DNA of 64,000 nucleotides. It comes from Rickettsia sp. GTDB lineage: Bacteria; Pseudomonadota; Alphaproteobacteria; Rickettsiales; Rickettsiaceae. This document shows positions 1-61,968 of this stretch, piece by piece. Below the pieces are notes generated by a model. It searched no databases, had not been told where the DNA came from, and saw only the letters and a program-made list of their open reading frames with translations. The position numbers were made by a program, and so were the translations under genes. The stretch is from contig JAHFPS010000001.1 of NCBI GenBank assembly GCA_023269695.1, positions 44,366-108,365 on the forward strand. Reading direction: 5' to 3'. Positions within the stretch are counted from its first letter, which is position 1. Every line of letters begins with the position of its first letter.

Positions 1-745
1 AAGGTAAACTCCTAATTACAATAGTAGATAATATTGTGCGATTATATAATTCTCCAGTATGGCAGCAACGTCGGTAACTTATGTATTTCTCAGGGTTACT
101 ATAGGTATCGTCTGCTATTTTGGTTATATCTTTAATACCTGCTTCTTGTAACTGAAGTTCTACGTAAGCTGGTAAATCGAACATATAATGTCCTGTTTTC
201 AGGGAATTAATAAAAAACCTTGAGTAATCAGCCCGCTGTTTTATAAAATTATCGTAATATTCCTGACCAACTTCATAAGAACATTGCTGAATAGTAGGAC
301 AAATAATAGCTTTAATATTTTTTGCTCCTTTTTTCTGCATTAATTCTACCGCATTATTAATGATACCAGCTTTAGCCCCACGCCAACCACAATGAGCAGT
401 TCCTATAACCATACCATCCTTACTACTAAACAAAACAGGAGCACAGTCAGCGGTCTGTATTGCTAGTACTAGATTCTTTTTTGTAGTAACTGCCCCATCA
501 GCTTCCAGGTCAGTATCACTATCAGTAATTAAATCAGCATCAATAATTTTGCTACCATGCACTTGCTGTAAAATAACAATATTATCGGCATTATAATGTT
601 GGACTACTGCTAGCCTATTATTTTCGACTATTTCTAACTGATTAGGATCACCAAACTTATTTTTTTTACTATAAACATGACTAGATTGCTTGAAGCTTTT
701 ATCAAAAATTTTATAATAAACTTTATTCTTTACAAATTCATGCAC
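1..745 (-). CDS. pgeF: Peptidoglycan editing factor PgeF / YfiH laccase-domain protein (3' partial, runs off the window edge)
   Basis: Manual translation: GTG at 745, open frame containing QQVHG, TADCAPV and SYRR motifs; not in the ORF track. Confidence 0.85.
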   Translation of the reverse strand, partial: MHEFVKNKVYYKIFDKSFKQSSHVYSKKNKFGDPNQLEIVENNRLAVVQHYNADNIVILQQVHGSKIIDADLITDSDTDLEADGAVTTKKNLVLAIQTADCAPVLFSSKDGMVIGTAHCGWRGAKAGIINNAVELMQKKGAKNIKAIICPTIQQCSYEVGQEYYDNFIKQRADYSRFFINSLKTGHYMFDLPAYVELQLQEAGIKDITKIADDTYSNPEKYISYRRCCHTGELYNRTILSTIVIRSLP

Positions 746-1759
746 ATGACAACTCCACAGAATTTTATTTATAAATTATCAGATTATTTGCAAAAAAACA
801 ATGCATTGCAAAAAATCATCAATAAATTCCAAACAGATTACTCGCTAATACCTTGCATTGGAGTGGAAATAGAATTTTATTTAAGCAAAAATATTGACCC
901 ACTCAAATTGCAAACTCTGCTTGGTATATTAGTTAAGAAAGAAAAAGGCGATAATCAATTTGAGATAGATTTGCCACCTTCTACTAACATAATTGAGTAT
1001 ATAGGAAAAATTAGTAGCACTAAGTCTAAAATACAAATTATTGCAAAAAAATTGCAGGGCAAGGTAAATTTTTCTGCCAAACCATTGCCAAACGGTTATG
1101 GTAGTAGTATGCATTTTCATGTAAATTTTATAGATTCTTCAAGGTCTATTAGCGAAGAGGCTGCTTTAGTAGCGACGAAGCAAAGTCCCCCCAACGTCAT
1201 TGCGAGACCACGTGAGTGTAGTGGCAATCCACATTCATTAGATTGCTTCGTTGCCGCTAAAGCGGCTCCTCGCAATGACGTTGAGACCTTGCTTCGTTCG
1301 GGCTTCACGGCTCCTCGCAATGACATTAGTTTACTACGAACAAATACTGATATGCTTGATCTAATGGGGCAGAGTATCTGCCATTATATGCTCGATAGTT
1401 TTTTGATATTTATGCCGAATGAAGATGATTACCTTCGTTTAGATAAAAATTTTATGGCACCAACTAATGTATCTTTTGGTAATAATAATAGAACTGTTGC
1501 CGTACGCATTCCTGACTCATCTCCTAGAAGAGTAGAACATAGAATAGCAAACCCACTAACCGATCCTTATTTGGCAATTTTTACTATTTTAAACTCTATA
1601 TTATTAGGTCTAGAATTTCCTGATAAAATCAATAATATCAACAAAATATATGGTAATGCTTTTGATCAACAATATCATTTAGTACCATTACCAAAATCAT
1701 TAGCAGAAGCATTAGCATTGTTTGATTTGCAGTTTTTTTTATCTAAACATTTTCTCTAA
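746..1759 (+). CDS. glnA: Glutamine synthetase catalytic-domain protein (short GlnA-like) with an in-frame repeat insertion
   Basis: GVEIEFY, NQFEI, SMHFHVN, NNRTVAVRIP and RVEHR motifs; start moved from 677 to 746 because 677 overlaps pgeF. Confidence 0.8.
   Translation: MTTPQNFIYKLSDYLQKNNALQKIINKFQTDYSLIPCIGVEIEFYLSKNIDPLKLQTLLGILVKKEKGDNQFEIDLPPSTNIIEYIGKISSTKSKIQIIAKKLQGKVNFSAKPLPNGYGSSMHFHVNFIDSSRSISEEAALVATKQSPPNVIARPRECSGNPHSLDCFVAAKAAPRNDVETLLRSGFTAPRNDISLLRTNTDMLDLMGQSICHYMLDSFLIFMPNEDDYLRLDKNFMAPTNVSFGNNNRTVAVRIPDSSPRRVEHRIANPLTDPYLAIFTILNSILLGLEFPDKINNINKIYGNAFDQQYHLVPLPKSLAEALALFDLQFFLSKHFL
1144..1324. repeat. Nested core palindromes inside glnA (inner core 1195-1280)
   Basis: GTCTATTAGCGA...[CGTCATTGCGAG...CTCGCAATGACG]...CTCGCAATGAC; the inner unit is nearly identical to 22180-22263. 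Confidence 0.9.
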
Positions 1760-2068
1760 AACTTCTAAAATTAAACATGTAGTTTCAGTGTCTAAAACTC
1801 CAAGCTTTCTTATAGCTCTAGACTTGTCTATAGTACGAATTTGATCAAGTATAATACTCCCTTCTTTACCATTAAAAACTATAGGAACACGAGTCGGGTA
1901 ACTTTTAATCTTACTTGTCATGGGTGCAACAATAAGAGTTCTTATATATTTATTCATTTCGTTAGGGGAAATAACTATACAGGGTCTTGTTTTGTTTATC
2001 TCTGATCCTTGAGAAGGATCAAGAGATACGAGTAATATATCAAACCTATAAATATCTACCATTGCCAT
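1739..2068 (-). CDS. mazF: PemK/MazF-family mRNA interferase toxin
   Basis: LDPSQGSEINKTRPCIVISP, LDQIRTIDKSR. Confidence 0.9.
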   Translation of the reverse strand: MAMVDIYRFDILLVSLDPSQGSEINKTRPCIVISPNEMNKYIRTLIVAPMTSKIKSYPTRVPIVFNGKEGSIILDQIRTIDKSRAIRKLGVLDTETTCLILEVLEKMFR

Positions 2069-2307
2069 TCTTCTTCATCCCAAGAATGTTCTATTAAATT
2101 GATATCTAACAAGTGATCATCTTCATTTTTAGACATAAGATGAAAGCTTTTTTCCCATCCTTCTCTTGCTTCTTCATAAGGTGTTATAATAAGAGCATGA
2201 TCTTTTACTGTTAAGTTCACAACATTTGTTATTTTGCATTGTTTAAGAAAGGCTTTAGGGATTCTTAAGCCCTTTGAGTTACCAATTTTGATAATTTCTG
2301 CATGCAT
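2056..2307 (-). CDS. mazE: AbrB/MazE-family antitoxin
   Basis: IIKIGNSKGLRIPK AbrB motif; directly upstream of and overlapping the toxin; ATG at 2307. Confidence 0.88.
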   Translation of the reverse strand: MHAEIIKIGNSKGLRIPKAFLKQCKITNVVNLTVKDHALIITPYEEAREGWEKSFHLMSKNEDDHLLDINLIEHSWDEEEWQW

Positions 2308-2336
2308 TTTTATTACCAATATTACTTAAAATTTAG

Positions 2337-2488: not shown

Positions 2489-2614
2489 CATTGTAATTAC
2501 TTTGTATACCATGTCAAGTAATTATATCTTGGATAATGCAGGAGTGCAACTATTTGACAATAGACAAGGAGAAGCAGCTACTATAGAATTACTACTAGAA
2601 ATAATGAAGAAATT

Positions 2615-3328
2615 ATGGTGTCCAAAGTTCTAAAAATTGGTAAGTGCCAAGTGCAGTTATTACCTTTATCACTTACTATATTAGCATTTGTCATCCTCTT
2701 ATCATTGGGGTTTTGGCAAATTGCTAGATTGCAGGAAAAAGAACTATTTTTAAGTTCAATGAAAAATAACCTTAATAATCCTCCTATTGATATAAAAACA
2801 CTTAGTGCAGATAAATTATATGCTAAAGTGAAAATGAAGGGGCATTTTTTGGTTGGTAAGAATTTGCATCTTTATGGACGTAAATCAATGTCCACTGAAA
2901 AAGATGGCTATTATTTAGTCAGTCCTTTTCAAACTGATGATAATAAGATAGTCTTAGTTGCATTAGGGTGGTTTGCTGCGAGGTATAAGAAAAATATTGA
3001 TGATATAGTGGATGACTCTACAGAAATTACCGGTGTAATTCTCCCTGGTGAGAAAACCAAGCTGTTTGTCTTAGATAATGATGTTAAAAACAATGTTTGG
3101 TTTACTTTAGATTTAACTCAAGCATCCAATATTCATGGTTTGACATTAGAAGATTTTTATTTAATTATGGAAGGTAACAATAATCAATCTGATATTCTTA
3201 AAAGTTTGTCGATTAAAAATCTGTTAAATGTCAGAAATGATCATTTAGAATATGCCATTACTTGGTTTGCCTTGGCAATTTCGTTAGCAGTAATTTTTGT
3301 AATTTATTATTTGCCTAAAAGAAAATAG
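2615..3328 (+). CDS. SURF1/Shy1 cytochrome oxidase assembly protein
   Basis: LGFWQIARL, HLEYAITWFALA. Confidence 0.9.
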   Translation: MVSKVLKIGKCQVQLLPLSLTILAFVILLSLGFWQIARLQEKELFLSSMKNNLNNPPIDIKTLSADKLYAKVKMKGHFLVGKNLHLYGRKSMSTEKDGYYLVSPFQTDDNKIVLVALGWFAARYKKNIDDIVDDSTEITGVILPGEKTKLFVLDNDVKNNVWFTLDLTQASNIHGLTLEDFYLIMEGNNNQSDILKSLSIKNLLNVRNDHLEYAITWFALAISLAVIFVIYYLPKRK

Positions 3329-9507: not shown

Positions 9508-9653
9508 CGTCATTGCGAGGAGCCGCTGTAGTAGCGACGAAGCAATTCTGTTTTCTGTCATCCCTGCGAAGGCAGGGATCTAGATTCCCGCCTACGCGGG
9601 AATGACAACTTACAATTGCTTCGTCGTAGCAATGCTACTTCCTCGCAATGACG
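9508..9653. repeat. Core palindrome with inner hairpin pair
   Basis: CGTCATTGCGAGG...GTCATCCCTGCGAAGGCAGGGATC/GATTCCCGCCTACGCGGGAATGAC...CCTCGCAATGACG. Confidence 0.9.
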
Positions 9654-13390: not shown

Positions 13391-13557
13391 TATAACTAAC
13401 CAGGGCTAACATTACGCCAAATTGACAAATGTCATTGCGAGAAGCCACTTTAGTGGCGACGAAGCAATCCAAGATTAGAGATGGATTGCCACGACCACTA
13501 CGTGGTCTCGCAATGACACTAGTTTACTATGGCAAAATACTAATCGAGTTAGCTATA
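13391..13557. mobile_element. Shell-A MITE providing the glmU stop codon
   Basis: TATAACTAACC...GAGTTAGCTATA. Confidence 0.88.
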
Positions 13558-16782: not shown

Positions 16783-16923
16783 GGTCGACGAAGCAATTGT
16801 AAGTTGTCATTCCCGCGGCTCTGATGTCATTCCCGCGTAGGCGGGAATCTAGATCCCTGCATTCGCAGGGATGACATTGATATTGAGCAGGTATCTAGAT
16901 TCCCGCCGCAGCTAGGAATGACA
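16761..16923. repeat. Truncated core with multiple inner hairpins, overlapping the coxB 3' end
   Basis: CATCATTGCGAGGAGACC... followed by several GTCATTCCCGC/GGGAATGACA units. Confidence 0.85.
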
Positions 16924-20326: not shown

Positions 20327-20430
20327 TATAGCTAACCCGAATAAGTTCTTCCTTTTTGTGTCATCCCTGTGAAAGTAGAGGATCTAGATTCCCGCCTACG
20401 CGGGAATGACAATAGGGTGCGGGAATGACA
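20327..20430. repeat. A left TIR with inner hairpin units, truncated
   Basis: TATAGCTAACCCGA...GATTCCCGCCTACGCGGGAATGACA. Confidence 0.8.
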
Positions 20431-20548: not shown

Positions 20549-22120
20549 ATGTCATCATTTGTTTCACAAAAATATAAGAATATAGGTATAGTTGGTTTGG
20601 GTAAGACTGGTATGGCTGCTTATCAATCATTAAATAAAGTAGCTAGGATAATTTGTTATGATCAAGTAAGTAGCAGTAGGGATGCTTTCAGTAAAATCTA
20701 TGGAAACGATAATTTGGTTAGCTTATCTGATCGGCGGTGGCAGGAGCTTGATAAGATACTACTGAGTCCAGGCGTTTCCTTGTCGCATGATATTGTTACA
20801 ATGGCTAATTCCCGTAATATACCAATAACCTCAGATATAGACCTATTATTTGAGGAGGTTAAGTTCAGAGGGGGCAATAAAGCTAATTTCATTGGTATAA
20901 CTGGTACTAATGGTAAGAGTACTACCACAGCTTTAACCGGTCATATTTTACAATTTTGTAATTTTGATTACCTAGTTGGCGGAAATATTGGTTTTCCTGC
21001 TTTAAGTATGGGATTAGATTGTCAAGGATATGTATTAGAGCTATCTTCATTTCAGTTAGACTTATTAAGCAGTTTTAAAGCTAAAATTGCTGTGCTTCTT
21101 AATATTACCGAAGATCATTTAGATCGACATAATAATATACAAGGCTATATTGCCGCTAAAAAGAAAATCTTTGATCGAATGGATAAAGATTCATTTGCTA
21201 TAATTAGTGTTGATGATGAAATTACCAACAATATCTTCCTAGAATTAGAAAATGAAAATAAAACAAATATAGTACCAATCTCTGTTGGTAAAATCCTTGA
21301 TAAAGGAGTGTCAATTTGTAATAATGTTGTTTATGACAATATTTTTGAACCGATTACTATTAATCTCCATAATAATAGTTCTTTACAAGGCATACATAAT
21401 CAAGAAAACATTGCCGCTAGTTATGCAGCTTGTCGGATTATAGGGGTAAGACCAGAACAAATAATTGCTGCCATCGAGTTGTTTAAGGGGTTGCCGCACA
21501 GGATGCAATATGTTGGAGCAATATACTCAGATCATTCGAATATAGCTAATCCGATTAGCATTACGCCAAATTCACAGACGTCATTGCGAGGAGCCACTTT
21601 AGCGGCGACGAAGCAATCCAGAAAAGTGATTAGAAATGGATTGCTTCGTTCGGGCTTCGCACCTCCTTGCAATGACGCCAGTTTACTATGGCTAAATGCT
21701 AGTAAGGTTAGCTATATGATAAATTTTTATAATGATAGTAAGGCTACCAATGGCATTGCTGCTTCTAAATCCATTGCAGCACTTGATAATATATATTGGT
21801 TAGCTGGAGGGGTGGCAAAAGAAGGGGGAATAACAAATTTAGAGCCATGGTTTGATAAAATTCGTAAGGCTTATCTTTTCGGTCAAGATAAAGAACTTTT
21901 TGCATCGTCACTTAAGGGCAGGGTAGATTTCCAAATTTGTCATGATTTACAGGAGGCTTTTAATGCTGCCGTTAGGGACGCAATGCAGGATATAGGGGAT
22001 ATAAAAAATATCTTGCTAGCTCCGGCTTGTGCCTCTTACGATCAATTTAAAAATTTTGAAGAACGTGGAAATCTATTTATAGAATTATATAATATTATTG
22101 CTAATCATGATCAAAGATAA
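20549..22120 (+). CDS. murD: UDP-MurNAc-L-Ala:D-Glu ligase with a 58-aa in-frame insertion
   Basis: ITGTNGKSTTT, ELSSFQL, LNITEDHLDRH, GLPHR, NDSKATN, LAPACASYDQF. Confidence 0.96.
   Translation: MSSFVSQKYKNIGIVGLGKTGMAAYQSLNKVARIICYDQVSSSRDAFSKIYGNDNLVSLSDRRWQELDKILLSPGVSLSHDIVTMANSRNIPITSDIDLLFEEVKFRGGNKANFIGITGTNGKSTTTALTGHILQFCNFDYLVGGNIGFPALSMGLDCQGYVLELSSFQLDLLSSFKAKIAVLLNITEDHLDRHNNIQGYIAAKKKIFDRMDKDSFAIISVDDEITNNIFLELENENKTNIVPISVGKILDKGVSICNNVVYDNIFEPITINLHNNSSLQGIHNQENIAASYAACRIIGVRPEQIIAAIELFKGLPHRMQYVGAIYSDHSNIANPISITPNSQTSLRGATLAATKQSRKVIRNGLLRSGFAPPCNDASLLWLNASKVSYMINFYNDSKATNGIAASKSIAALDNIYWLAGGVAKEGGITNLEPWFDKIRKAYLFGQDKELFASSLKGRVDFQICHDLQEAFNAAVRDAMQDIGDIKNILLAPACASYDQFKNFEERGNLFIELYNIIANHDQR
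21541..21716. mobile_element. Shell-A MITE in frame within murD
   Basis: TATAGCTAATC...GGTTAGCTATA; 176 bp including both TA, net 174 bp. Confidence 0.93.
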
Positions 22121-22132
22121 TCATAATAATGA

Positions 22133-22290
22133 ATTCACCTTACGCATGGCATTTAAAAATTGCAAAAAAGTACAAGATGTCATTGCGAGACCACGTGAGT
22201 GTAGTGGCAATCCACATTCATTAGATTGCTTCGTCGCCACCAAAGTGGCTCTTCGCAATGACGCCAGGCTGTGTTATGCGTAAGGTGAGT
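22133..22290. mobile_element. Shell-G element at the murD/ftsW junction
   Basis: ATTCACCTTACGCAT...ATGCGTAAGGTGAGT TIR; AATGA direct repeats at 22128-22132 and 22291-22295; core inside. Confidence 0.88.
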
Positions 22291-25424: not shown

Positions 25425-25599
25425 CGTCATTGCGAGCAGTAGCCTTGTTGAGATGAAGCAATTGTAAGATGTCATTCCCGCGTAGGCGGGAATCTAGATC
25501 CCTGCTTTCGCAGGGGGATGACACAAAATTAGATTGCTTCGTCGCCATCAAAATGGCTCCTCGCAATGACACCAAGCTGCTTTATTCAGGTTAGCTATA
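25425..25599. repeat. Core with A right TIR supplying the transporter stop
   Basis: GGTTAGCTATA at 25589-25599 overlaps the stop at 25591. Confidence 0.85.
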
Positions 25600-38683: not shown

Positions 38684-38827
38684 AGACTTCCTGGATAAGC
38701 CAATCTAGTTGGTGATTTTGTCGTCGAAACTCGCCTCCGCTCCTCACGTACGTTTATGTACGCTGCGGTACTCGGCTTCGTTTCTCCTAAAAATCTCTCA
38801 ACTATCTTTGACTTATCCAGGAAGTCT
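38684..38827. mobile_element. 144-bp RPE-like element (variant subfamily)
   Basis: AGACTTCCTGGATAAG...CTTATCCAGGAAGTCT; TGT on both sides. Confidence 0.88.
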
Positions 38828-39811
38828 TGTTTGAAAATTTGTTAATTCCAGCATCAAATATTCGTCCATAGGTATCTTACTTTGATTAAGCATTCTATTG
38901 ATATTAGAACCGAGTGCTTTAAATAACTTACCTTTGGCAATCACCGTTCTAGTGCCAACTGGTACTTTACCATGCAGAGCATATGACACAATTAATGGAT
39001 AACTAATATCACCAATTTTTATATCTAGTTTCTCACCTTTTTGTACTGAATCATAAAGTACCTGACCATTCGATAATTTAGTAATCTTTGCGTCAACTCC
39101 TACTTTATCTCCACATAATAAGGGTATCCTATAAGCTATTTCATCATCAAATATCTTTACTTCATGACTATTAACAAAATTATTAGGTAATATTGAATTT
39201 AGGACAATATTAACCCTATAAGGTGAATCATATGCTTTATTTTCTTCGTTAGAATATGCATATTTTGTAGGAAGTATAGCTTGTCTGGTTTGTCCAACCA
39301 TCATCCCTACTACTACAGAATCAATTCCAGGCATGATTGCTCGAGAACCAAGGGTAAAGGTTTTGGTATTTTCACTGAGTAAATTATTGTTAATATCCAA
39401 TAATTGGTAATGTAATGTAACTACATGACCACAAGTTGCTGGACCAACAGTCCCATTACCAAAGCTGTTAATCTTAAACATTGGCTGAATTAAATCTCTA
39501 TTAACCTCTATAGTATATTTACCATCAGTAATAGGTTTGTTAGTTGGTTGTAGTAAATTTTCAAAGAATAGTCGACCTTCTTCTGTTTTAAGAGCATTGA
39601 TCAAAACTTTTGAAACAGTTTTTTCAAGGAAATTACCAGTTAATGGTATATTCGCTTGTTCAGTAGAGGTAGTGCTAGTATTGTTATTACTTTCGGATTC
39701 ATTGGCTGTCTGAACCTTAGGGGTGCTTTCCTCAGGTGGAGATTGCGTTTTCATTTGAACAATAGAGTAAATAATTGCTGCAGCAATTATAAAAGTTAAA
39801 GCTTTTTGCAT
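38813..39811 (-). CDS. Exported protein with FKBP-like peptidyl-prolyl isomerase fold(s)
   Basis: CGHVVTLHY...TFTLGSRAIMPGID..VVGM.VG..R pattern; true start MQKALT at 39811 (the ORF-track extension is repeat-derived). Confidence 0.7.
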   Translation of the reverse strand: MQKALTFIIAAAIIYSIVQMKTQSPPEESTPKVQTANESESNNNTSTTSTEQANIPLTGNFLEKTVSKVLINALKTEEGRLFFENLLQPTNKPITDGKYTIEVNRDLIQPMFKINSFGNGTVGPATCGHVVTLHYQLLDINNNLLSENTKTFTLGSRAIMPGIDSVVVGMMVGQTRQAILPTKYAYSNEENKAYDSPYRVNIVLNSILPNNFVNSHEVKIFDDEIAYRIPLLCGDKVGVDAKITKLSNGQVLYDSVQKGEKLDIKIGDISYPLIVSYALHGKVPVGTRTVIAKGKLFKALGSNINRMLNQSKIPMDEYLMLELTNFQTRLPG

Positions 39812-39856
39812 ATAATATTCCTCTCTTAAGTATCTTTTAGTTTGGTTTATAAAACA

Positions 39857-40034
39857 TATAGCTAATCCGAGTAACATTACTCTGTCATTGCAAGGAGTAC
39901 ACAAGTTCCAGGCGTCATTGCGAGGAGCAACTTTAGTGGCGACGAAGCAATCCAAAAAAGTAATCAGAAATGGATTGCTTCGTCGGCTCACGCCTCCTCG
40001 CAATGACGGAATAATGTTAGTTGGGTTAGCTATA
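39857..40034. mobile_element. Shell-A MITE
   Basis: TATAGCTAATC...GGTTAGCTATA. Confidence 0.9.
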
Positions 40035-40047
40035 CATTCTATAGTTT

Positions 40048-41352
40048 TTAATGTCTTGTCCTAAGTTGCTCTGCTTTGCTCAATGCTTCTTCTGCTTGCG
40101 AGTTTTTACCTAATTTTTTCAAGGCAACACCTTTGTTATAGTAAGCTCTAGCATCATCAGGCTTATATTTGATTGTCAAATCAAATAATGTAATTGCCTC
40201 CTGGTATTTGCCTAATTTACCTAAAGTCATACCTTTGTTATAGTAAGCTTTAGCAAAATCAGGCTTATATTTGATTGCCAAATCATAGGCTATAATTTCT
40301 TCTGGGTGTTTACCTAACTTATCTAAAGCTATACCTTTACTATAGTAAGCATTAGCGAAATCAGGCTTATATTTAATTGCCAAATCATAGGCTATAATTG
40401 CATCCTGCCATTTATCTAATTTATCCAAAGCAACACCTTTGTTATAGTAAGCTTCAGCAAGATCGGGCTTATATTTGATTGCTAAATCATAGAAGTTAAT
40501 TGCCTTATGCCATTTGCCTAATTTACACAAAGTTGTACCTTTGTTATGGTAAGCTATAGCAAAATCAGGCTTATATTTAATTGCTAAATCATAGCAGTCA
40601 ATTGCATCCTGCCATTTATCTAACTCATCCAAAGTAGTACCTTTATTATAATAAGCATCAGTATAATCAAACTTATATTTAATCGCCAAATCATAGGCTA
40701 TAATTGCCTCATGCAATTTGCCTAATTTGCCTAAATCAACACCTTTGTTATAGTAAGCTTTAGCATAGTCAAACTTATATTTAATTGCCAAATCATAAGA
40801 GTCAATTGCTTCTTGATATTTGTTTAATTTTTCTAAAGCAATAGCTTTGTTATAGTAAGCTTCAGCAAGATCAGGCTTATATTTAATTGCTAAATCATAG
40901 GAGTTAATTGCCTCATGCAATTTATCTAACTTATATAAATTGTTACCTTTGTTGGTGTAAGCTTTGGCATGATCAGGCTTATATTTAATTGCTAAATTAT
41001 TTAGTATAATTGCCTCTTGCCATTTGCCTAACTTACTTAAAACCTCACCTTTGTTATAGTAAGCATCGGCAAAATCAGGCTTATATTTGATTGCTAAATC
41101 ATAAGAGTCAATTGCATCCTGCCATTTATCTAACTTATCCAAAGCAGCACCTTTATTATTGTAAGCTTCAGCAAGATCAGGATTATATTTGATTGCCAAA
41201 TCATAGAAGTCAATTGCTTCTTGCCATTTGCCATACATTGCTAAAATATTCGCTTTCTCAAAATATTGTTGAGCATCGGCAATCACTTTGCTAAAGGGGA
41301 GTAATATTAAAGTAAGTAAAATTATTAGTTGTTTTATGTTAATTATTTTCAT
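40048..41352 (-). CDS. Signal-peptide TPR repeat protein (about 12 x 34 aa)
   Basis: Tandem AYYNKG..L.KLGK..EAI..YDLAIKYKPD units. Confidence 0.92.
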   Translation of the reverse strand: MKIINIKQLIILLTLILLPFSKVIADAQQYFEKANILAMYGKWQEAIDFYDLAIKYNPDLAEAYNNKGAALDKLDKWQDAIDSYDLAIKYKPDFADAYYNKGEVLSKLGKWQEAIILNNLAIKYKPDHAKAYTNKGNNLYKLDKLHEAINSYDLAIKYKPDLAEAYYNKAIALEKLNKYQEAIDSYDLAIKYKFDYAKAYYNKGVDLGKLGKLHEAIIAYDLAIKYKFDYTDAYYNKGTTLDELDKWQDAIDCYDLAIKYKPDFAIAYHNKGTTLCKLGKWHKAINFYDLAIKYKPDLAEAYYNKGVALDKLDKWQDAIIAYDLAIKYKPDFANAYYSKGIALDKLGKHPEEIIAYDLAIKYKPDFAKAYYNKGMTLGKLGKYQEAITLFDLTIKYKPDDARAYYNKGVALKKLGKNSQAEEALSKAEQLRTRH

Positions 41353-45669: not shown

Positions 45670-45971
45670 TATAGCTAAACCCGACTAATACCAATTAGTG
45701 TTAATAAATAGAGTTATAGAACTAACCCATCAATGTTCTAGATATCCCAGACGTCATTGCGAGGAGCTACTTTAGTGGTGACGAAGCAATTGTCAGTTGT
45801 CATTCCCGCGTAGGCGGGAATCTAGATCCCTGCTTTCGCAGGGATGACACAAAAATGGATTGCTTCGTCGGCTCACGCCTCCTCGCAATGACGGAGTAAT
45901 ACTAGTCGGGTTAGTCATCCATACATGACAAGTGGTCGCGGGAATGACAAAGGATTGCTGTGGAAATGACA
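45670..45971. repeat. Composite A arms, core and hairpin units between convergent genes
   Basis: TATAGCTAAAC at 45670; core at about 45752-45893; GGGAATGACA. Confidence 0.8.
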
Positions 45972-52044: not shown

Positions 52045-52376
52045 CTAACCCGAGAAGGTTTTAGCCATAGTAAAGGTGATGTTATTGCGAGGGGGCGTAG
52101 GCCGCACAACTGTCGAAAGTTAGAAGGGGAGGGGGTTTTAGGCAAGGTAGTTTAAAAGTCGTATGTGACCAACGTCATTGCGAGACCACGAAGTGGCATG
52201 GCGATCCACATTCATTAGATTGCTTCGTCGCCAAAATGGCTCCTCGCAATGATGCCAGGCTGTTTTCTCTATGACTTTTAAATGCCATGCGTAAGGTGAG
52301 TGATTAAGATCCTGAAACAAGTTCAGGATAACACATTTGGGTTTTAACCATTCTTTACGACTTTTAAACTGCCATG
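52040..52376. repeat. Composite A/C/B/G repeat cluster between convergent genes
   Basis: A TIR at 52040; C left at 52105; core at about 52173; G right end 52287-52301; B-type end 52359-52376 inside fmt. Confidence 0.85.
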
Positions 52377-59056: not shown

Positions 59057-59261
59057 TATAGCTAACCAGAATAAGTTCTAGATATTCCAGGCGTCATTGC
59101 GAGGAGCCACTTTAGTGGCGCGACGCGGCAATCCTGTTTTGTGTCATACCTGCGAAAGCAGGTATCTAGATTCCCGCCTACGCGGGAATGACAACTTACA
59201 ATTGCTTCGTCGTGCTTACACACTCCTCGCAATGACGGAGTAATGCTAATCGGGTTAGCTA
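59057..59261. mobile_element. Shell-A MITE
   Basis: TATAGCTAACC...GGTTAGCTA. Confidence 0.9.
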
Positions 59262-59804: not shown

Positions 59805-59979
59805 TGTAGCTAACCCGATTAGTATTTATCCACGCAAACTGGCGTCATTGCGAGGAGGTGCGAAGCCCGAACGAAGCAATCCATTTCTAATCACCTTTCT
59901 GGATTGCTTCGTCGCTACTAAAGTAGCTCCTCGCAATGACGTCCGTGAATTTGGCGTAATGTTATTCGGGTTAGCTATA
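59805..59979. mobile_element. Shell-A MITE
   Basis: TGTAGCTAACCCGA...GGGTTAGCTATA. Confidence 0.9.
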
Positions 59980-61456: not shown

Positions 61457-61968
61457 TATATTCAAATGATTTGAAGAATTGTTTTTTGAAAATATCAGGG
61501 ACTTGCATACTCACGTACCACAGCTGTCGAAAGTTAGAAGAGGAAATGGTTCTAGAGGTCATCATGGCAGTTTAAAAGTTGTAAAAAAATAACTGGCGTC
61601 ATTGCGAGGAGGCATGAGCCGCACAGCTGTCGAAAGTTAGAAGGGGAATCGGTTTTAGGCAAGGTACTTTATAAAGTCGTATGTGGTCAACGTCATTGCG
61701 AGGAAGACCGTAGGTCGACGAAGCAATTGTAAGATGTCATTCCCGCGTAGGCGGGAATCTAGCTCCCTGCTTTCGCAGGGATGACAGAAAAATGGATTGC
61801 TTCGTCGGCTCATGCCTTCTCGCAATGACGCCAGTTATTTTTCCGCAACTTTTAAACTGCCATGATGACCTCTAAACCCGCTCTACCTTCTAACTTTCGA
61901 CAGCTGTAACTAAAGTAGCTCCTCGCAATGACATAGAGGCTATCTAGAACATTGACGGGTTAGCTGTA
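61457..61968. repeat. Multi-layer nest (RPE half, C, B, core, C, B, core, A end)
   Basis: C left ends at 61519 and 61622; C right end at 61908; A-like end at about 61968. Confidence 0.85.

Follow-up and report, generated by a model that had tools for sequence, protein, structure and literature searches.

Palindromic elements lying in frame within rickettsial genes (RPE-1 and other Rickettsia palindromic elements, RPEs) were reportedly described by Ogata et al. in 2000 (Science) and 2002 (Genome Res) and by Claverie & Ogata in 2003. RPEs are short, dispersed palindromes that occur between genes as well as in frame within unrelated housekeeping genes, where a peptide is added at a structurally tolerant place and the protein is not destroyed (PMC1166351, PMC10969869). 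In R. japonica, RPE-4, RPE-6, RPE-7 and an 'extended RPE-4' carry an ATGAC motif, their inserts are solvent-exposed, and different RPE groups lie close together in one gene region of orthologues; whether this reflects a hot spot or a single common origin of RPE-4/-6/-7 was raised as a question in the same work (Matsutani et al. 2013, PMC3767692). The subject of the present study is an RPE-type insert in a GlnA-like gene on contig JAHFPS010000001.1, from which a stretch of 64,000 nucleotides (nt) was analysed, called the window here. It is AT-rich (33.6% GC) and, judged by its nearest proteins, is from a Candidatus Tisiphia (Torix-group Rickettsia) genome.

Positions 1144-1324 of the window are a nested palindrome, namely an ATGAC-type RPE with a second element in its apical loop, and all of it is read in frame behind the HxH motif of the gene, where a preliminary description of the DNA had proposed a nested palindrome; the stop-free reading frame, the nested inverted repeats and the folds of DNA and RNA bear this out. 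The insert is likely a nested RPE passenger carried in frame by a permissive loop of a constrained protein, and it is old and shared among Tisiphia lineages. The anatomy of the insert, the relationships between its copies, the states of the orthologues, the contrast in selection and the fold were shown.

Anatomy of the nested insert and its element family

The gene and the parts of the insert are located as follows.

740..1759, plus strand: GlnA-like coding sequence, 339 aa, alternative start at 746, open reading frame (ORF) 677/740..1759; catalytic domain of glutamine synthetase (GS) only
1106..1126, plus strand: SMHFHVN strand; H125 and H127 correspond to the GS HxH metal/ATP motif, aligned to GSGMHVH of 3NG0
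1144..1183, plus strand: outer element, left arm, GTCTATTAGCG...GACGAAGCAA; three 1-nt insertions (T1147, A1151, A1155/1156), net +3
1184..1195, plus strand: linker in the outer apical loop, or the inner element's short extension to the left (..CAAC); CAAC|GTCATTGCGAG ... GAC|GTTG lengthens the inner palindrome to 15/15
1196..1279, plus strand: inner element, 84 nt, with perfect 11-nt terminal inverted repeats (TIRs) GTCATTGCGAG / CTCGCAATGAC
1280..1288, plus strand: linker or right extension of the inner element, GTTGAGACC; complementary to the 1140-1147/1184-1195 context and like the GTTGACCAC flanks of other copies
1289..1324, plus strand: right arm of the outer element, TTGCTTCGTTCGGGCTTCACGGCTCCTCGCAATGAC; two independent copies are matched at 33/36 and 32/36
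1325..1352, plus strand: right-hand extension of the outer element, ATTAGTTTACTACGAACAAATACTGATA (AGTTTACTA..AAATACT), encoding ISLLRTNTD; absent from uninserted orthologues
1263-1282 and 1308-1327, plus strand: 20-nt direct repeat pair GGCTCCTCGCAATGAC (family D1, spacing 45), a substrate for in-frame deletion
Predicted peptides encoded by the insert: ECSGNPHSLDCFVAAK and SGFTAPR

The ORF through the insert reads ...YGSSMHFHVNFIDSS RSISEEAALVATKQSPPNVIARPRECSGNPHSLDCFVAAKAAPRNDVETLLRSGFTAPRNDISLLRTNTDML DLMGQSICHYM... and is free of stops. The reading frame runs into repeat DNA eight residues past the HxH strand, and the insert exceeds uninserted orthologues by 189 nt or 63 codons, in agreement with the earlier estimate of about 60 codons of repeat. 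The inner element is identical in 79 of 84 nt (94%) to a copy at 22179-22262, a near-match that had already been pointed out with coordinates shifted by one (22180-22263). Its identity is 71/80 to 52174-52253 and 81/84 to the orthologous copy of L053. The linker at 1184-1195 is comparable to the gtggtcaac/gttgaccac flanks of other copies.

The outer left arm matches the reverse complement of 59844-59940 in 35 of 37 positions and 21580-21676 in 32 of 37, with three single-base gaps. Its three 1-nt insertions fall within 11 nt, and exactly these bases are absent from a relative's contig. Taken together, the outer arms match these two independent copies (59844-59940 reversed) by 87-95%. Since the copies belong to a different subfamily, the outer part is an element in its own right, and duplication of an inner arm does not account for it. 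A tandem duplication of the inner right arm as the source of the outer one was ruled out in particular, as the hairpin spacer of the latter, CGGGCTTCAC, and its left partner belong to the other subfamily. The extension at 1325-1352 matches the conserved right flank gccAGTTTACTATGGCTAAATGCTAAT of the copies at 13431, 21580, 50404 and 59844 (minus strand) and is thus part of the element and not host sequence.

The inverted repeat 1192-1206/1269-1283 is complementary in 15 of 15 positions and lies inside 1175-1187/1285-1297 and 1193-1215/1305-1327. When folded as DNA, 1138-1330 formed a single nested rod of -43.1 kcal/mol (z = -5.8) and none of 200 shuffles was as stable; as RNA, the same stretch reached -81.1 kcal/mol (z = -5.7). 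The ATGAC motif is found in the termini, with CTCGCAATGAC at 1269-1279 and 1314-1324 and GTCAT at 1196-1200. Both right termini (GCTCCTCGCAATGAC) share one frame, giving APRND twice at a distance of 45 nt, and the claim that the two stacked cores are read in different frames holds only for the left arms and the TTGCTTCG motif. An intein or intron was ruled out, as the insert has 63 residues only, no splicing motifs and no Rfam intron and matches dispersed repeats. Likewise, an antisense ORF at 1117-1326 (minus strand, 69 aa) was rejected as a gene; it is a by-product of the palindrome symmetry, as canonical copies are free of stops in frame +1 as well as in frame -1.

Within the 64 kb, the TIRs were matched with two mismatches at most 29 times on the left and 36 times on the right side, and at least 22 cores were paired. 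The element TIR was also found in Tisiphia and Rickettsia loci. When the flanks of 22 copies were compared, full-length copies had conserved extensions beyond the core and no consistent target-site duplication was detected. A cognate transposase was not identified either, and no search aimed at it was made. The cores (GTCATTGCGAG..CTCGCAATGAC) are mostly bordered by extensions, about 40 nt in length, whose ends TATAGCTAACC/GGTTAGCTATA are the outer-tier TIRs. Two of the six frames of the element family are stop-free; the GlnA-like gene uses one of them and MurD the same one. MurD (window 20549-22120; Mur_ligase_M, MurD-like_N) reads through an outer-type copy as ..NIANPISITPNSQTSLRGATLAATKQS..LLRSGFAPPCNDASLLWLNASKVSY.. 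The repeats are modular and hierarchical; in five 'long forms', the apical loop houses a further palindromic module (TGTCATTCCCGCG..CAGGGATGACA). This module also stands alone, e.g. at 16822-16875 and 20359-20410. The sites in the window are the following.

22179..22262, plus strand: sister copy of the inner element, intergenic in the murD-ftsW spacer
Core 21580..21676 with extensions at about 21541-21716, plus strand: outer-type element in the MurD ORF, in the same reading frame as in the GlnA-like gene
9509-9652, 25426-25570, 45753-45892, 59093-59236, 61692-61829 and 61598-61932: modular or long-form sites, the last being a nest of at least three levels

An ORF for an FKBP-type peptidyl-prolyl isomerase (38813-40060, minus strand) holds an RPE core at 39914-40007 near its 5' end, which is either coding or upstream of the true start. 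[quoted passage not shown] The NCBIfam models for RPE-1, -2 and -3 (TIGR01045, TIGR03774, TIGR03775) matched neither the insert peptide nor the open frames of canonical copies at E-values up to 10. No Rfam family was matched in the whole window, and a protein database search with the 73-aa insert peptide returned no candidates.

Alleles of the loop and history of the insertion

Orthologous DNA from 13 Tisiphia and Rickettsia genomes was compared over the segment between the HFH and CHYM motifs, and the loop was found in these states.

L056, L002, L004, L059, L007 and L012: loop of 30 codons, uninserted
The window: loop of 93 codons (+189 nt)
L053: inner element of the window at an identical junction (81/84 nt), without 21 nt of the outer left arm and without exactly 45 nt between the direct repeats
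L055, L058 and L001: +69 nt, made up of the outer left arm and the inner element's left half alone
L057: L055-type with one further complete element (+102 nt)
L006: flanks closest to the window (96%), no window-type insert, a different palindromic module repeated four times in tandem (99 nt per unit); intact ORF of 417 aa

The uninserted loop of six relatives, together with the ORF that stays open through the insert, confirms that RPE-type elements were added in frame, and the orthologues, with their 30-codon loop, carry no native insert of that size. All seven allele-to-allele indels are multiples of three (+189, +3, -21, -45, -117, +102 and n x 99). A variant of the hairpin stem still pairs in relatives (ACCAC/GTGGT versus ATCAT/GTGAT). 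The palindromic units of L006 (3001-4254; Ca. Tisiphia endosymbiont of Hybos culiciformis) comprise 33 codons each and occupy this loop as well. In the database, the gene is represented by P0045, a 'hypothetical protein' of 294 aa whose first residue is the Met of SMHFH, probably a mis-called start; annotation pipelines can thus mis-call such genes.

Insertions into the loop were also counted among the 120 relatives listed, each being a cluster of sequences that are at least 90% identical. Twelve of them had inserts of at least 12 residues at the loop, and elsewhere one insert after residue 47, one after residue 60 (of unclear origin) and one in the C-terminal tail were seen. The elements in the loop were assigned as follows.

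P0007 and P0008: RPE1, at different positions (NCBIfam model matches)
P0026: RPE3 (NCBIfam model match)
P0029: RPE2-like, just under the model cut-off
Window clade: ATGAC-type elements
P0007, P0053 and L006: CCCGCG-type module
P0023 / L003: related palindrome

Counted conservatively, these are at least nine independent insertions and one tandem amplification at different codons within about 12 residues. The varied positions and families argue for a selective filter, i.e. a permissive loop in an otherwise intolerant protein of 270 aa, and not for a single ancient insert. Judged by these alignments, the loop behind the HxH strand is a tolerant and recurrent landing site for palindromic elements, which is the main new point. 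The permissive loop that had been suspected is also supported by the neutrality of the insert against constrained flanks and by the lack of a confident AlphaFold structure for it. Outside the loop, P0120 has an ATGAC-type peptide of the same element family (..RHCERSEAIS..ATPPRNDV..) after residue ~47, past the first catalytic strand, and P0022 / L012 carries a 55-residue insert in the C-terminal tail.

Concerning the age of the insert, the inner elements of the window and L053 share 81 of 84 nt (96%) at a synonymous divergence (dS) of the flanks of 0.16, and the left half of the inner element is present in alleles of four more genomes at dS 0.22-0.27. The insertion consequently predates these splits, and the recent spread that had been suggested by the near-identical copy in the window could not be upheld. 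The gene is a mosaic: over the upstream gene, L001 matches the uninserted L056 with 96.7% identity, but over the 3' half of the GlnA-like gene it matches L055 with 98.1%, which points to an exchange of alleles by homologous recombination between Tisiphia lineages. The identity of L001, L055 and L056 switches along about 1.8 kb (upstream gene of the Cu-oxidase_4 family and GlnA-like gene), with a breakpoint in or near the gene. L058 (1126-2004) and L001 (3007-3885) differ in 3 of 738 nt of their flanks and in 14 of 99 nt of the insert remnant, where L001 is nearer to L055. Possible causes are gene conversion limited to the RPE or a short-read contig that is a chimera of co-infecting strains.

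A genome rich in short, modular RPE-type palindromes would have supplied the elements. An ATGAC-type element would have come to sit in the loop after the HxH β-strand and an element of the sister subfamily in its apical loop. As two frames are free of stops and the total of added nucleotides is divisible by three, the host ORF continues through the insert and is longer by about 63 residues. Selection would filter only for frame and absence of stops, and the enzyme core would stay under purifying selection. The insert is shared by several Tisiphia lineages in variously eroded forms, with alleles shuffled by recombination, and would decay through losses that keep the frame, such as the one that lies between the two repeated right termini. 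The permissive loop would have gathered many independent RPE insertions in this way over the evolution of the Rickettsiaceae.

Two successive insertions are the simplest, though unproven, reading. A tentative alternative, to which a smaller but appreciable probability is given, is a one-step origin, with a pre-nested composite that formed elsewhere in the genome and was inserted as a unit. Composites are indeed common (the five long forms and the multi-level nest at 61598-61932), and the outer left arm always occurs with the inner left arm at an identical junction. As elements are often nested in apical loops here, both routes are plausible. However, a second copy of the outer/inner junction was found neither in the rest of the window nor in about 400 kb of Rickettsiaceae loci outside the GlnA-like gene, where Tisiphia sampling is thin; a metagenome scan gave 60 stretches, none of which resembled the insert or the gene by blastn, so that they are chance matches.

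Beyond being tolerant, the loop may be a true integration hot spot, in which some property of the DNA, or of the apical loops in RPEs already present, draws in further palindromic elements. A hypervariable surface loop on a conserved enzyme, open to occasional use by selection, would then arise through nesting, gene conversion and tandem amplification, the last as in L006 with its 4 x 99 nt; this is regarded as doubtful. Persistence of the insert could further be due to a role at the RNA or DNA level, with the rod of about 180 nt acting as an RNase III or stability determinant, as a translational pause or as a hotspot of recombination or gene conversion. The very stable RNA fold, the retained pairing of the stem variant and the excess divergence that is limited to the insert between near-identical alleles would fit such a role. 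It is nevertheless unlikely: L055-type relatives lost half of the palindrome without decay of the gene, no Rfam family was matched, and conversion from other copies explains the conservation of the stem equally well.

Host protein, selection and predicted structure

The 339-aa protein has Gln-synt_C as its sole Pfam domain (E=1e-29), and Foldseek assigned it to the GS fold with a probability of 1.0. The N-terminal β-grasp domain of GS is missing, which is a trait of the whole family. With TIGR00653, the equivalog model of GlnA, it scored 67.3 bits against a cut-off of 429, below the level of a full-length type I GS. Its 157 homologues are all of Rickettsiaceae type and about 265-300 aa long. 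The YGSSMHFHVNF motif aligns with the GSGMHVH strand of solved GS structures. Among 76 family sequences including the window, E43, E45, E68, E75, H125, R233, R251, R256, E266 and R268 are invariant, and these ten residues align with the metal, ATP, glutamate and phosphate ligand motifs of GS; H127 is conserved in at least 90%. The flap Glu of GS (fEAP/yEAP) is replaced by Met in the Rickettsiaceae family (fMAP; M239 conserved in at least 90%). The protein thus shares with type I GS (GlnA; PDB 3NG0, 8OOQ, 4LNK) the fold of the catalytic domain, the Glu/His metal ligands, the HxH motif and the arginines that bind phosphate and glutamate, but differs in its size of about 270 aa without the insert, the missing β-grasp domain, fMAP in place of fEAP and a score below the GlnA cut-off. 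The family appears to be a minimal, atypical GS-domain protein, whose competence as an enzyme is suggested by conservation. Driscoll et al. (2017, PMC5615194) listed GlnA for every one of the rickettsiae solely from genome data, and the 'GlnA' of rickettsial metabolic reconstructions would be this minimal protein with putative activity.

The ORF is intact across all 339 codons including the 63 inserted ones. The ratio of nonsynonymous to synonymous substitution rates (dN/dS; Nei-Gojobori) of the window against 11 relatives was 0.10-0.24 over 738 nt of alignable flanks, which accordingly do not evolve neutrally. The shared 99-nt remnant of the insert gave 0.94-1.48, in contrast to 0.11 for the flanks of comparably diverged pairs. 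By these measures, the gene is apparently not decaying, the host protein being constrained and the inserted peptide evolving neutrally.

AlphaFold2 with an alignment of 76 sequences gave a mean predicted local distance difference test score (pLDDT) of 84.9 and a predicted template modelling score of 0.83. The core exceeded 90, as did the HxH strand (124-132), and residues 148-190 were below 50. The insert is located between this strand and the helix 202-215, and a short helix was predicted in the segment encoded by the outer left arm (residues 137-145). According to the model, the insert peptide is probably a disordered passenger in a surface loop and presumably harmless in vivo.

A pseudogene or a relaxed, non-catalytic relic that tolerates inserts for want of selection is very unlikely. 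It could be suspected from the large insert eight residues from an active-site strand, from the C-terminal tail cut off by a PemK/MazE insertion, from the missing N-terminal domain and the flap Met, and from the lack of RNA evidence for this allele in a metatranscriptome of the same sample. However, the intact ORF, the low dN/dS of the flanks and the intact catalytic ligands speak against it, and so do the indels in multiples of three and the tail-less forms, which are common in the family and include all Rickettsia proper. The constrained flanks and the unconstrained insert refute a pseudogene as far as sequence can. The relaxed protein that had been put forward as the cause of tolerance is therefore not supported; the atypical features are family-wide and unrelated to the insert.

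The displaced end of the gene and its surroundings were located as follows.

2555..2620, plus strand: ancestral C-terminal tail that the GlnA-like gene has lost by displacement, ..LFDNRQGEAATIELLLEIMKKL; 87% identity to L059 3816-3897
1739-2068, minus strand: PemK/MazF-like toxin
2056-2319, minus strand: MazE-like antitoxin
2373-2454: RPE
2615-3328: SURF1

In L059, 3816-3897 is the gene's own 3' end adjoining SURF1, and the tail is also visible in the alignment of orthologues. Relatives carry other cargo at the junction of the GlnA-like gene and SURF1, namely PIN/MazE in L053, PDDEXK_2 in L055 and a fragment of a DDE transposase in L056.

It is decidedly improbable that the RPE peptide was exapted for a function at the protein level, e.g. 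as a variable surface loop for oligomerisation, regulation or host interaction. The repeated occupation of the same loop, the retention of inserts in frame over long periods and the short predicted helix might be seen in this light, but the insert has a dN/dS of about 1 and the low pLDDT described above, its alleles show large in-frame deletions and unrelated element families, and close relatives do without an insert.

Some points weigh against a nested in-frame passenger in a constrained protein and temper this preferred explanation. The GlnA-like gene had no coverage in the groundwater metatranscriptome of the same sample (X21), where only a 140-nt RPE contig from another copy was obtained. 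A true metatranscriptome from fish gut (X25) contained a contig of a relative's RPE-bearing allele and runs labelled 'RNA?' contained uninserted alleles of relatives, which is suggestive only, and the X25 contig could be contaminating DNA. The pairwise dN/dS averages over both lineages and could hide a loss of function that befell the window lineage only very recently. The gene lost its ancestral tail of 22 aa to the toxin-antitoxin insertion, and 'functional enzyme' is a conclusion from conservation for a family that has neither the N-terminal domain nor the flap Glu of GS. Among the orthologues compared, there was no outer-only allele. Finally, low pLDDT can stem from a shallow alignment instead of true disorder.

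An assembly artefact, i.e. repeats that were mis-joined in the metagenome assembly, is extremely improbable: the window sequence was found in a groundwater metagenome and short-read contigs break inside these repeats, yet independent contigs of two public runs (X1 and X2) that span 600-1221 and 1222-2397 cover both junctions with 0-6 differences, the chromosome-level Tisiphia L053 shares the inner element and the junctions, and the left junction recurs in four other genomes.

Comparison with known systems

No literature was found on RPEs in glutamine synthetase or on nested RPEs. [quoted passage not shown] Unlike the translated pair of the window, they are mainly extragenic. To our knowledge, translation through a nested pair has not been described for any of them.

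In-frame RPEs in Rickettsiaceae proteins are known, and the GlnA-like gene and MurD of the window show the same behaviour. A translated nested pair and a loop colonised by many element families are less usual. The window differs from the described cases in that both elements of a nested pair are translated, that they are not RPE1, RPE2 or RPE3 by NCBIfam, that the host is a Tisiphia and that one loop received many insertions. One and the same loop thereby offers a natural series of uninserted, singly and doubly (nested) inserted, half-deleted, element-added and tandem-amplified states with at least five element families. It also sets a host protein under constraint clearly apart from an inserted peptide that drifts neutrally and erodes in multiples of three.

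With RPE-4/-6/-7, the elements share the ATGAC-bearing termini (CTCGCAATGAC / GTCATTGCGAG). In contrast to the loci described for these groups, uninserted alleles are present in close relatives, and RPE1, RPE2-like and RPE3 elements were also found in the loop, which favours repeated independent insertion over one ancient insert. The series of this loop thus bears on the question of hot spots versus a single ancient origin that was raised for RPE-4/-6/-7 (PMC3767692).

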